Assembly (NCBI GenBank): GCA_001661245.1
Contig: KV454012.1
Coordinates: forward strand, 950,848 to 1,014,847
Direction of reading: 5' to 3'
Source of the DNA: Pachysolen tannophilus NRRL Y-2460
Lineage: Eukaryota
Length of the DNA: 64,000 nt
The notes under the pieces were generated by a model that was not told the DNA's origin, did not search any database, and saw nothing but the letters and a program-made list of their open reading frames with translations. Each line of letters begins with the position of its first letter. Position 1 is the stretch's first letter. Shown piece by piece: positions 35,585 through 60,568 of the stretch. Position numbers and translations under genes: made by a program.

Positions 35585-37516
35585 ATGAAGCTTCGTTTGT
35601 TTCTTCTGGCTTTGTCATTATTGACGGCAAATGCCCAAGGTTATACTATTAACATTTTTAATAGCTCTTCCTCGGCTCTCGCCCCAGCAGGTAATTCAGA
35701 GTCGGGAACAGCAACAAGTACAACTACAGTATTGATAACTTTAACACCATCATCTTCAAGCTCTTTAGTTCACTCAACTTCTCTTGGAGCAGCAGTTGAA
35801 GTCACGTCTTCTTCTGAATCTTCAGCATCAACTGTTGCCGCTGAAGGTACTTCAACAGCTTCAACTGGATCTTCAGCTTCAGCTCTTGCCGCTGAAGGTA
35901 CTTCAACAACAACATCAACTGGAACTGAATCTTCAGCATCAACTGTTGCCGCTGAAGGTACTTCAACAACATCAACTGGAACTGAATCTTCAGCTTCAAC
36001 TGTCGCTGCGGAAAGTACTTCAACAACATCAACTGGAACTGAATCTTCAGCTTCTACTGTCGCTGCGGAAAGTACTTCAACAGCATCAGGATCTTCAGCT
36101 TCGGCTCTTGCAGCTGAAGGTACTTCAACAACTGAAACTGGAGTCTTTGGAACTACAACAGTTACAATCACTTCATGTTCAAACAACCTGTGTTCCACAT
36201 CTACAGCCACAACAGGTTACACAGTTGTCACAACTACTATTTATGGTACTGAAACATCATACACAACTTACTGTCCATTAACAGCAACTGGAAGCGCTAC
36301 CGTTGCCCCAGCTTCTGTTGAGGTTGTAACTGTAACTGCAACTGAAACTACTGTCATCCCAACTACTTATGAGTCAGCTGGTTCTACTTACTCTACAGTA
36401 GCCACTACAGGTGTTGAAGTTGTCACTGTTACTATTTATGGAACAGAAACCAGTTACACTACATACTGTCCATTGACTTATACAAGTACCGTTGCTCTGG
36501 AAGCCCTGACTGCAGCAAGCACTTACACAACAGTTGTTCCGGCTTCTAGTACCACTGTTTTCACAACCACTTATAGTTCAAGTGGATCTACTTATACTTC
36601 TACTGTTACAACTGGTGTTGAAGTTGTAACTGTAACTATTGATGAAACTGTCACTATTTACACAACTTATTGTCCATTGACTGCTACTTCGGTAGTTACC
36701 AGCAGTGCTGCCAGTTCATCAAAGGCTACTGCTACTGTTGCTGCTGCTGCTACAACGGCTGAATCCGAGGAATCAGTTTACACATACACTACAACTGTTT
36801 ACGCTCCATCCACCACAGTCTTCCCAACAAGTTATTCGTCAGCAGGTACTACTCTTTCTTCAACAGTTACCACTGGTGTCACTGTTGTAACTGAAACAAT
36901 TGAAGAAGTCATCACTATTTACACAACGTATTGTCCATTATCAAAGATCTCAGTTGTTACAACCACATCAACAAGTGCTGAGCAATTCATTTACAGTGCC
37001 GGCGCATCTTCAACTGCATCTTCAACTGCTACTTTAGCGGCTGCTGAAGCAACAGCAACAGCAGCTCCTGCATCATCTTCAGCAACTGTCAAACTGACTC
37101 TGAGTAGTTCAGAAACTGAAACTACAACTGTTTCATCGGCTACAGGTGGCAGCGCTACTGCAAGTGAAGCAACAGAAAGTTCAACTAAAACTGCTGCTTT
37201 AGTTGAAGGTGGTATTATTGGTGAAAGTATAACAACTACAAGCTCAAGTGGAGCAACTGCAGAAACTTCTTCTGAAGCTTCTGCTACTGAAGCTGCTGAA
37301 GCTACCGCAACTGCAGCAACCGCTACTGAAAGTTCCACAGAAACTATCTCCACCACAGTAAGTACTTCTCCTGCATCATCATTAGTAACATCTATTTCAG
37401 GCAATTACTCCAGCTCTAGCGCAGTTGCCTCTGTTTCGGAAGGTTCGGGTGCTGTTGTTAAATCAAGCGTTTCTGCCTTACTCGGTCTCTTGGCCCTTGG
37501 ATTTTTGATGATATAA
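35585..37516 (+). CDS. Ser/Thr/Ala-rich GPI-anchored cell-wall protein (flocculin/adhesin-like repeats)
   Basis: N-terminal signal peptide; tandem ESSASTVAAE[G/S]TST repeats; TITSC....C motif and four YTTYCPL repeats; C-terminal small-residue plus hydrophobic GPI signal (EGSGAVVKSSVSALLGLLALGFLMI). Confidence 0.92.
   Translation: MKLRLFLLALSLLTANAQGYTINIFNSSSSALAPAGNSESGTATSTTTVLITLTPSSSSSLVHSTSLGAAVEVTSSSESSASTVAAEGTSTASTGSSASALAAEGTSTTTSTGTESSASTVAAEGTSTTSTGTESSASTVAAESTSTTSTGTESSASTVAAESTSTASGSSASALAAEGTSTTETGVFGTTTVTITSCSNNLCSTSTATTGYTVVTTTIYGTETSYTTYCPLTATGSATVAPASVEVVTVTATETTVIPTTYESAGSTYSTVATTGVEVVTVTIYGTETSYTTYCPLTYTSTVALEALTAASTYTTVVPASSTTVFTTTYSSSGSTYTSTVTTGVEVVTVTIDETVTIYTTYCPLTATSVVTSSAASSSKATATVAAAATTAESEESVYTYTTTVYAPSTTVFPTSYSSAGTTLSSTVTTGVTVVTETIEEVITIYTTYCPLSKISVVTTTSTSAEQFIYSAGASSTASSTATLAAAEATATAAPASSSATVKLTLSSSETETTTVSSATGGSATASEATESSTKTAALVEGGIIGESITTTSSSGATAETSSEASATEAAEATATAATATESSTETISTTVSTSPASSLVTSISGNYSSSSAVASVSEGSGAVVKSSVSALLGLLALGFLMI
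35816..36132 (+). repeat. Coding minisatellite, about six imperfect 51-60 nt units
   Basis: Repeated tcttcagc(a/t)tcaactgt(t/c)gc..ctgaaggtacttcaaca units encoding SSASTVAAEGTST and SSASALAAEGTST. Confidence 0.9.
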
Positions 37517-38451: not shown

Positions 38452-38994
38452 ATGGTTCGTCTTAAGACTCGTTATATTTTATTTGAGATATTGTATCCAT
38501 TTGAAGCTTCTTCCGATAAAGTGATTCTGGAACCTGAGACTTTATTATCACTTCATCAACCTTCACCAAGTTCTATTACAAATAAATTATTGATTCAACT
38601 GGTAAGACAGTCTTTACTGGATCATTTTGGTGACTATGGAACAGGGACAGCAGGAACCTCGTTGGTGATAAAGTATTTTTCTCCAAGGACATCTACTGGG
38701 ATTTTAAGAGTCTCCAGAGATTTTTATAGGTATATATGTGCCTCTTTGATGCTTATTAAAAAAATTGATGGTAAAGATGTAATAATAAGAGTAGTGAGGG
38801 TTAGTGGTACAATCAAGAAATGTGAGATGGCAGCGATTAAAAGGAATAAGGATTTTATAAATCTGTTGAAAAAAAATGAATTAGGTGGGTTAGAACTGAT
38901 GTTTGGGTCTGCTTCTGCTTCTGTTTCTGCTGTTGATGAAGAAATTAAAAACCTGGATGCTTATATAACAGATCAGGATATAATAGAAGAATAA
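38452..38994 (+). CDS. POP5: RNase P/MRP subunit Pop5
   Basis: MVRLKTRYILFEILYP, FGDYG, KYFSPRTSTGILRV, VVRVSGTIKKCE. Confidence 0.95.
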   Translation: MVRLKTRYILFEILYPFEASSDKVILEPETLLSLHQPSPSSITNKLLIQLVRQSLLDHFGDYGTGTAGTSLVIKYFSPRTSTGILRVSRDFYRYICASLMLIKKIDGKDVIIRVVRVSGTIKKCEMAAIKRNKDFINLLKKNELGGLELMFGSASASVSAVDEEIKNLDAYITDQDIIEE

Positions 38995-58536: not shown

Positions 58537-58784
58537 GAAATCGATACCATTATCATCACCATTAACAACTCACAAGAATCAAAAATCAAAAAGAAAAAAA
58601 AAGTTGATTTCTGTCGATATATTCTATACGTCTATATATATATATATATATTTATATATATACATTCTATATATTTGTCTTTTCTGTTCACTATTATGAT
58701 TGATAAATTTTAAAGATCTTTTAGTTATATCATGTAATTTTGAATCTTTCCATTAACCTGATAAATCGAATTGAAAAAAGAATA

Positions 58785-58786
<2 letters not shown>

Positions 58787-58834
<48 letters not shown>

Positions 58835-59356
58835 NNNNNNNNNNNNNNNNNNNNNNNNNNNNNNNNNNNNNNNNNNNNNNNNNNNNNNNNNNNNNNNNNN
58901 NNNNNNNNNNNNNNNNNNNNNNNNNNNNNNNNNNNNNNNNNNNNNNNNNNNNNNNNNNNNNNNNNNNNNNNNNNNNNNNNNNNNNNNNNNNNNNNNNNNN
59001 NNNNNNNNNNNNNNNNNNNNNNNNNNNNNNNNNNNNNNNNNNNNNNNNNNNNNNNNNNNNNNNNNNNNNNNNNNNNNNNNNNNNNNNNNNNNNNNNNNNN
59101 NNNNNNNNNNNNNNNNNNNNNNNNNNNNNNNNNNNNNNNNNNNNNNNNNNNNNNNNNNNNNNNNNNNNNNNNNNNNNNNNNNNNNNNNNNNNNNNNNNNN
59201 NNNNNNNNNNNNNNNNNNNNNNNNNNNNNNNNNNNNNNNNNNNNNNNNNNNNNNNNNNNNNNNNNNNNNNNNNNNNNNNNNNNNNNNNNNNNNNNNNNNN
59301 NNNNNNNNNNNNNNNNNNNNNNNNNNNNNNNNNNNNNNNNNNNNNNNNNNNNNNNN

Positions 59357-59400
<44 letters not shown>
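58787..59400. repeat. (TA)n microsatellite flanking assembly gap 58835-59356
   Basis: More than 20 TA units on each side of the N run. Confidence 0.95.
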
Positions 59401-59403
<3 letters not shown>

Positions 59404-59409
59404 TTTAGA

Positions 59410-60568
59410 ATGAATTGTTCTCTGTCATCCAATGCTATAGCACTTATGGATGACTTCATAACTTCTAGTTTAATTGATAATGTATGTATGTAATTTTTTG
59501 TTTAAATAATGTTTTTGCAAAACTAACATTTATTGAGAATTGAGTTACCATTAGTTATATTTTTGGGCAACAACAAGGAAGATACAGGATATATGGTTCA
59601 AGCCAATCTTGAATCGTTATGTGTTAGAGTCAATCCAGATGTATTTATTGGATGTAGCTGATGAACCATTATGTTCTTTATGTGTTAGCGATTTAATGGA
59701 AAGAGTAGAGACTAGAGAATTTATATCTAAATACATTGATAATGAATTGAAATTAACAGAATTTGAGAATCATTTTGAAAAATATCTCAATATTTATTTA
59801 CCAGATTGTGTATTTGAAATTAATACTACTAGTAGATATGGTGGTAAGATAGGTAAGAGATTTATGGAAGGAACTGTTGTTGCTAGAAGAGAAATTTTAC
59901 TGGGACAAGAGATTAAATATTTACAAGGTATTTTAAGTGAAGTTTCAGAAGAAGAAACTTTGAATATAAATGATTTGAGTATAATTAGATTATCAAGTAA
60001 AAAAAATAAACCATGTTTAATGTTGGGTCCTTTAAGATTTGTTAATCATGATTGTAATGCTAATTCAAAATTTTTTTCAAAATTAAATGTTTTAAAAATA
60101 GTTTCCACAAGAAAGATTTTGATGGGAGAAGAAATAACTGTATTTTATTCAAATGATTATTTTGGTGAAGATAATTGTGATTGTTTATGTGCTAGTTGTG
60201 AACGTAGTCTTAATGGATATTGGAAATTACATAGAAAATTGATGATTCAAAGATCCCTTGATTTACCAATATTGAATAATACCAAGTCACAATTATCGAA
60301 TACAAAGATAAGACCAAGACGTTATACAAGGTTACAAAATTCGAAAAATAAAACAATACTAGATTTTTATGGAATGAAACCATCCCAAGATAAGAAAAAG
60401 ACAATTAATTTTTTAAACAAATTGTATAACAGAAATGTAAGGTCCAAGGCAAAATGCGACAACTGCGGTGTCTTCACTGCAGCTGAACCCATATGCTTGC
60501 GGTGCAAAAGACACCAATTAATATATAAAACTGCTTGGCCATTAACATTACAAATTCAAAGGAGCTAG
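59410..60568 (+). CDS. SET9: Histone H4-K20 methyltransferase Set9/Suv4-20 family; two exons, 59410-59481 and 59555-60568
   Basis: The spliced N-terminus MDDFITSSLIDN|LYFWATTRK matches the family's DD...L.D..YW motif. Also YLNIYLPDCVFEINTTSRY, LMLGPLRFVNHDCNAN, GEEITVFYSNDYFGEDNCDCLCASCE (SET plus post-SET), and C.RCKRH..IY...WP. Confidence 0.9.
59482..59554 (+). other. Spliceosomal intron in SET9 (73 nt)
   Basis: GTATGT at 59482, branch AACTAAC at 59521-59527, TAG at 59552-59554. The phase-0 join is in frame with the ORF at 59609 and restores a conserved motif. Confidence 0.88.

Follow-up and report, generated by a model that had tools for sequence, protein, structure and literature searches.

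Reading CTG in a flocculin-type wall-protein gene of Pachysolen tannophilus: an alanine codon isolated from the other alanine codons

Introduction

A gene for a Ser/Thr/Ala-rich protein, lying in the 64,000-nucleotide stretch of Pachysolen tannophilus DNA analysed here (the window), contains six in-frame CTG codons, and raises the question of how this codon is read and whether the repeats of the protein itself reveal it. The original prediction, made from the sequence alone, had answered that they do: CTG would behave in this protein as an ordinary synonym of GCN, which would favour Ala over Ser independently of any outside homologue.

That CTG stands for Ala in this species is already known, having been published in 2016, and is in use in public proteins. 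Mass spectrometry of P. tannophilus assigned Ala to 97.2% of 907 fully supported CUG positions, with non-Ala exceptions occurring at the same rate as for AUG, the source of the proteome being a cytoplasmic extract (PMC4937558). The same code is reported for Nakazawaea and Peterozyma, in the order Alaninales (PMC5951914, PMC11182611), and code calls based on Pfam match the known clades in 453 of 462 yeasts, the exceptions that are named lying outside the Ala clade (PMC8629427). A conservation study of 2014, in which no CUG of Pachysolen fell on positions where Leu or Ser is 90% conserved, had assigned Ser to the species (PMC4986446). In the CUG-Ser yeasts (Serinales; Ascoideales) the same codon was likewise reassigned through an anticodon-mutated tRNA (PMC5951914). 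Our literature search found no published analysis of CUG-Ala based on repeats or synonymy, nor one dealing with how isolated this Ala codon is in repeats, an absence that it does not prove.

Results

The wall-protein gene and its six CTG codons

The features of the gene are as follows (positions in the window).

35585..37516, plus strand: open reading frame of 643 codons with 6 in-frame CTG, coding for a Ser/Thr/Ala-rich predicted GPI-anchored cell-wall protein
35585..35638, plus strand: probable signal peptide, about residues 1-18, deduced from the translation
35606..35608, plus strand: CTG, residue 8, in the hydrophobic core of the signal peptide; its best context match is Leu
35814..36147, plus strand: 57-bp tandem array of about 6 copies with 82-86% matches, coding for 4 STVAAE and 2 SALAAE
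36152..36283, plus strand: Flocculin_t3 unit 1, with the Cys loop SCSNN[CTG]C (G000:C2:986999-987130 in the genome)
36188..36190, plus strand: CTG, residue 202, preceding the second Cys of the unit 1 loop
36347..36478, plus strand: Flocculin_t3 unit 2
36485..36511, plus strand: S-T-V-A-[CTG]-E-A-[CTG]-T, in the linker 3′ of unit 2, with CTG at 36497 and 36506, residues 305 and 308
36551..36682, plus strand: Flocculin_t3 unit 3
36842..36943, plus strand: Flocculin_t3 unit 4, a partial match
37094..37102, plus strand: [CTG]-T-[CTG], in the Ser/Thr/Ala-rich stalk, with CTG at 37094 and 37100, residues 504 and 506; no informative internal counterpart
37442..37513, plus strand: small-residue stretch and hydrophobic tail, a putative GPI-signal-like C-terminus deduced from the translation

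The product matches PF13928 over four stretches (E 1.5e-24, 86.6 bits against a cut-off of 21.9). Its known counterparts are the Flocculin type 3 (PF13928) GPI wall proteins of yeasts, for instance "yeast-form wall protein 1" (P0251), which it resembles in its four units, the Cys loop in the first of them, the Ser/Thr-rich stalk and the hydrophobic ends; these ends suggest a signal peptide and GPI anchoring. Twelve outside relatives were found at E <= 1e-8, all of them PF13928 proteins. A close orthologue was not among the hits, the best of which had an E value of 4e-13 in a search made without the N-terminal 19-residue array. No exact match to the protein was present in the protein collection under translation tables 26, 1 or 12, and no self-hit appeared among 8,000 candidates of 353-1126 residues, while two neighbouring genes had matches; the gene may thus be unannotated or differently modelled in the public set. 

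The adjoining Pop5/Rpp14-family gene (38452-38994) has 6 CTG in 180 codons (3.3%), the highest density among the 40 CTG-richest sampled ORFs listed. Further along the window, a 244-codon ORF at 58725-59459 on the minus strand is spurious, and is produced by a block of N with AT dinucleotide repeats on either side (around 58750-59400).

A tRNA(CAG) of alanine type

One tRNA gene with the anticodon CAG was found in the genome, in a single copy (G000:C6:217831-217902, minus strand). It is 72 nt long, starts with GGGC, lacks a long variable arm and carries G3:U70 and A73, together with A35 and G37, as in Leu tRNAs. Global alignment gave scores of 30.5 and 24.5 with two tRNA-Ala types, the higher being for tRNA-Ala(AGC), against 18 for Val, −1 for Thr and −5.5 for tRNA-Ser(AGA). 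Identity to the two tRNA-Ala types of the genome amounts to 54/72 and 51/72 bases. A count against tRNA-Leu(UAG), for which the genome has one, intron-bearing gene, is not meaningful and was left out. The label given to tRNA(CAG) by ARAGORN is Leu, from the anticodon alone. Energy folding formed the acceptor, D and anticodon stems, with a z-score of −0.59 that we do not take as evidence.

A tRNA with G3:U70 and A73 is charged by alanyl-tRNA synthetase, and since tRNA(CAG) keeps both elements, it would be charged by this enzyme. By itself G3:U70 is no proof, as it is present in some Leu tRNA(CAG) (PMC4937558). Compared by description, the gene agrees with the tRNA portrayed in the text of PMC4937558 in its GGGC start, G3:U70, A73, G37 and lack of any extended variable loop. 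The tRNA of the CUG-Ser yeasts, in contrast, is of Ser type with a long variable arm.

CAG was the anticodon of none of the 16 Leu/Ser-type tRNA genes recovered by a D-arm pattern, 10 of which are of Ser type; the list may be incomplete, since no Leu-CAA gene surfaced in it. An earlier pattern joining the Leu/Ser D-arm to CAG gave 0 matches; it fitted only part of such tRNAs and was superseded. An Rfam tRNA search of the genome, in which 63 of 1003 candidates were scored, did not list tRNA(CAG). A pattern for the anticodon and T-loop produced 9 matches, compared to 4 in the control, and proved too strict for the real tRNA(CAG) gene; ARAGORN, under its first settings, placed no tRNA at the loci of those matches. 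As for the Leu tRNA genes themselves, the D-arm pattern recovered (L205-L220) four with TAA, one with AAG, one with TAG and none with CAA; TTG is the second commonest Leu codon, and the missing Leu-CAA gene was probably overlooked by the pattern.

Agreement with the published code

The window belongs to P. tannophilus, as its Clu1 gene has 99% identity to P0001, an entry under the name of this species, with the next match at 49%. In the public versions of two window proteins, Ala stands at 15/15 CTG, which is a matter of annotation and hence not independent. Single conserved sites point the same way in Atg18 (LLL[CTG]TASDKGT), where CTG stood opposite A in 3/3 alignments shown, and in the MAPK motif TEYV[CTG]TRWY, which in 7 other genes has A (3), S (2) or V (2) at this place. 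Ubc7 (ILH[CTG]PGDD) is divided, two of four alignments having S opposite the codon and two A.

We conclude, with a probability of about 0.96, that the window follows the CUG-Ala code by means of an Ala-derived tRNA(CAG), and that CTG is isolated from the other Ala codons. The window's code shows no difference from that of the Alaninales (NCBI table 26). The proposed sequence of events begins with what is seen in the DNA, a single-copy gene derived from tRNA-Ala that carries the anticodon CAG and retains G3:U70 and A73; alanyl-tRNA synthetase would charge this tRNA and so place Ala at CTG, in line with the published mass spectrometry, and Ala would presumably be inserted at the six CTG of the wall gene too.

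What the repeats of the wall protein tell

The original prediction had listed CTG at 36188, 36497, 36506, 37094 and 37100; all five are in frame. It had overlooked one more, which lies within the signal peptide at 35606. Its description of the domain also holds. Leu makes up 2.5% of residues 19-620, the CTG at 36188 does lie within the Cys loop of Flocculin_t3 unit 1, and STVAAE occurs four times (35828, 35939, 35996, 36053), its two Ala being written GCC-GCT twice and GCT-GCG twice, besides two SALAAE.

In-frame CTG is absent from the 57-bp array (35814-36147). The stretch 36485-36511 had been read correctly, and what does not stand is its status as the "same motif" within a repeat, as it lies about 340 bases past the array. 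It shares 10-12/18 bases with the four STVAAE copies, compared to 14-18/18 among the copies themselves; its Ser is encoded by AGT, while the copies use TCA or TCT, and the likeness is lost in the flanks. Such an echo was found at only 1/5 CTG sites, outside the array. When residues 186-620 were shuffled 20,000 times, STVA.E turned up anywhere in 2.1% of shuffles, and with CTG at the open place in 0.03%, a figure which favours the prediction and has to be read knowing that the pattern was picked after the fact and that local clustering is ignored. We therefore regard the STVA_E echo as suggestive only, a resemblance to STVAAE at the protein level. The parallel drawn between VK[CTG]T[CTG]SS and SKATAT comes down to a common K and T, and for neither site does SKATAT rank among the 8 closest context matches.

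For calibration, the same context rule was applied to residues of known identity in the wall protein, where Ala represents 14.5% overall. With partners restricted to the array, "Ala" calls were correct in 0/12 cases when 5 of 8 flanks were required and in 10/43 when 4 were; with partners anywhere in the protein, they were correct in 15/44 and 16/49 cases. Over the five sites, a flank classifier scored T 4.2, A 4.2, S 3.9 and L −1.5; the preference for Ala over Ser is thus not borne out, the first three scores being close and the paralogue columns described below ranking Ser first. With a CTG-free array, a single echo outside it and a poorly calibrated rule, a database-free proof from the protein's own repeats fails. 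The conclusion that CTG is Ala was right all the same, on other evidence, namely the Ala-type tRNA(CAG) gene and the published proteomics (PMC4937558).

The best internal hint is one that the original prediction did not have. Both other units of the genome with the exact SCSNN_C context carry Ala at the place of residue 202. Over 15 other units of the genome, this column has A 4, S 4, T 2, V 2 and one each of G, K and E, with no L; over 28 units from 12 outside relatives it has K 16, A 5, L 2, M 2 and one each of V, S and I.

Repeats in a genome sample

The proposal had called for an examination of repeats and paralogues across the genome, and this was done on a sample that reached 205 sequences and, overlaps included, 0.84 Mb; it contained 416 ORFs and 931 CTG, about 6% of the 16,824 CUG positions counted in the published work. 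A subset of 326 ORFs with 807 CTG served for the repeat, first paralogue and flank analyses. The outcome was divided: most of the data speak against a Leu-like CTG, as anticipated, and the anticipated pairing with GCN was not found.

Near-identical repeats, defined by at least 80% base identity over 7 codons on each side, provided partners for 23 CTG sites, 13 of them from one gene. CTG was opposite CTG at 18/23 sites, and other partners occurred at 6/23 (TTA; CTA and CCA; TTT; ATC; GAA; CAG). GCN was opposite CTG at 0/23 of these near-identical sites and Leu codons at 2, whereas GCA was opposite GCT at 35/108 repeat sites. A C8 flocculin (L042) has one unit with CTG where 7/10 units have Leu. 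Alternation of CTG with Leu codons, which had been put forward as the sign that would overturn the Ala reading, therefore does exist in repeats although the code is Ala, and is not a valid test.

L044, L045 (minus strand) and L040 are the readable parts of a repeat gene of great length, rich in Ser, which is N over much of this copy and ends in a Flocculin_t3 unit. In L044 and L045 its repeats are 15-16 residues long and of two types, with either CTG (13 copies) or TTT (17 copies) in the same column; another column has CCA 16, CCT 3, CTA 5, GCA 5 and CTG 1.

Paralogues, homologues and sequence context

Paralogue profiles were built from 148 rows (kinases, permeases, helicases, sugar transporters) and contained 71 CTG sites; the kinase loci were 90 stretches spanning the best of 115 matches, weaker ones being left out. 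The CTG sites scored −26.5 as S, −43.8 as K, −44.8 as A and −71.8 as L. As controls, 12/12 codons were called right, as were all 1,500 subsamples of 71 GCT, TTA or TCA sites, and true Ser codons scored +31 to +65. CTG fell in Ala-rich columns at 4/71 sites, against 30/79 for GCG, and in Leu-rich columns at 2/71, against 36/96 for CTA. The claim of synonymy with GCN thus finds no support in these Ala-rich columns or at the repeat sites. A mixture fit attributed to Ala a share of 0.19 of CTG (bootstrap 0.05-0.37), compared to 0.90 for GCG, the largest part of CTG being Lys (0.26). Pairwise paralogue counts placed Ala opposite CTG in 9-24% of cases, versus 39-64% opposite true Ala codons, at every threshold, and in a first likelihood ranking S and then A came on top, both under background.

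Outside homologues of Clu1 and UGGT (best 48 of 120 and best 60 of 120 hits, respectively, self-hits excluded) covered 15 CTG columns, where the top residue was A once and L three times. The flank context of 791 CTG fitted no residue, L being the least bad and A outside the top five. Per ORF, CTG frequency correlated positively with Ser (+0.27) and negatively with Ala (−0.18). In 8 Ser/Thr-rich ORFs, CTG was enriched 2.4-fold, with values of 2.3 for Ala and 0.5 for Leu. CTG made up 0.21% of codons where family columns are conserved and 0.49% in ordinary ORFs, and its share reached 1.18% in ORFs rich in Ser/Thr.

In the protein kinase L200 (G000:C5:96065-97356) a CTG takes the place of the Gly of DFG, in a column that is 97% Gly over 91 paralogues, so that under the Ala code the motif reads DFA. 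The sugar transporters L062, L063 and L064 have CTG at the same aligned site (WMIGA_IQSSS), a codon that is therefore older than their duplication.

Altogether, the internal data mostly reject Leu yet do not pick Ala. According to a statement in PMC4937558, the reassignment of CUGs in Pachysolen took place mainly where Ala is conserved; our sample supports this only for the few CTG at conserved sites.

Why CTG does not exchange with GCN

The isolated position of CTG as an Ala codon follows from the code table. Its nine one-step neighbours are four Leu codons and one codon each for Met, Val, Gln, Pro and Arg; none is an Ala codon. CTG is two changes away from GCG and three from GCT, GCC and GCA, so a single silent change cannot link it with the other Ala codons. 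In the absence of a one-step route between CTG and GCN, repeats and paralogues look "not Leu-like" without looking "Ala-like", and CTG is scarce in conserved columns because a conserved Ala cannot silently move to it. CTG would then reside mostly where constraint is weak and in wall proteins rich in Ser/Thr, and a new CTG would often be created when a codon for Leu, Pro, Gln, Val, Met or Arg undergoes a single change; the repeat columns suggest this for Leu, Pro and Gln codons at tolerant sites. Such a route accounts for the pattern only in part, since Lys has the largest share in the mixture and none of its codons is one step from CTG.

Discussion

Three other readings of the wall-protein CTG were weighed against an Ala codon isolated from its family. 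In the version of the original prediction, CTG behaves towards GCN as an ordinary synonym would, the motif at 36485 is a diverged copy of STVAAE, and the gene alone demonstrates Ala rather than Ser. Five of six residues do match the four-copy motif, with CTG at the open place in so few shuffles; Ala is present in both other SCSNN_C units, and the enrichment of CTG in Ser/Thr-rich ORFs is nearest to that of Ala. A diverged copy is nevertheless difficult to reconcile with a CTG-free array, a Ser from the other codon family and no likeness of the DNA beyond what the shared residues impose, and synonymy with GCN with the complete lack of GCN among the 23 repeat sites. Nor does the gene alone designate Ala, given the calibration of the context rule against a background of 14.5% Ala, the first rank of Ser in paralogue columns and the equal numbers of A and S in the Cys-loop column (4 and 4 of 15). 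This reading is largely refuted here, and we hold it to be unlikely. Reading CTG as Ser, as in the CUG-Ser yeasts, would account for the top paralogue-column score, the top per-ORF correlate and the S found opposite Ubc7 in 2/4 alignments, and is what the 2014 conservation study had assigned (PMC4986446). The score in question is however negative, far from the values of true Ser codons, the sole tRNA(CAG) found is of Ala type, and proteomics later gave Ala (PMC4937558); Ser was already refuted by the published spectra and its chances are practically nil.

Mixed decoding is the third possibility: CTG would be read mostly as Ala and partly as Leu, through wobble of tRNA-Leu(UAG) or mischarging, and wall proteins would be mixtures. 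The genome does have a tRNA-Leu(UAG), tRNA(CAG) has the A35 and G37 of Leu tRNAs, and the C8 flocculin has its CTG where most units have Leu; moreover, the published proteome came from a cytoplasmic extract (PMC4937558), in which wall proteins were probably poorly covered. Against it, 97.2% of the CUG positions in that proteome were Ala with exceptions at the AUG rate (PMC4937558), CTG is found in Leu-rich columns far less often than CTA, and a one-step mutation from TTG or CTA accounts for the Leu columns with no mixed reading. We consider mixed decoding highly improbable. If true, ambiguous decoding would make the cell surface vary in the CUG-Ala clade, through wall proteins in which CTG is enriched 2.4-fold and at times occupies Leu columns of the repeats, and the proteome, taken from a cytoplasmic extract, would have missed this.

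The preferred reading, an Ala codon cut off from GCN, carries a caution of method. When several mutations separate a reassigned codon from the family it has joined, the two do not exchange in repeats or paralogues; for this reason internal alignments can rule out the former meaning and yet suggest a wrong new one. Here the wrong meaning is Ser, the same that the 2014 conservation study had reached before mass spectrometry gave Ala (PMC4986446), and the refuting test attached to the original prediction would wrongly reject a true code.

For the organism, the code matters for the correct translation of the P. tannophilus genome. We would further put at roughly even odds that CTG, as a cut-off Ala codon, opens one-step routes from Leu, Pro, Gln, Val, Met or Arg to Ala, and lets repeat units switch back and forth between Leu and Ala.
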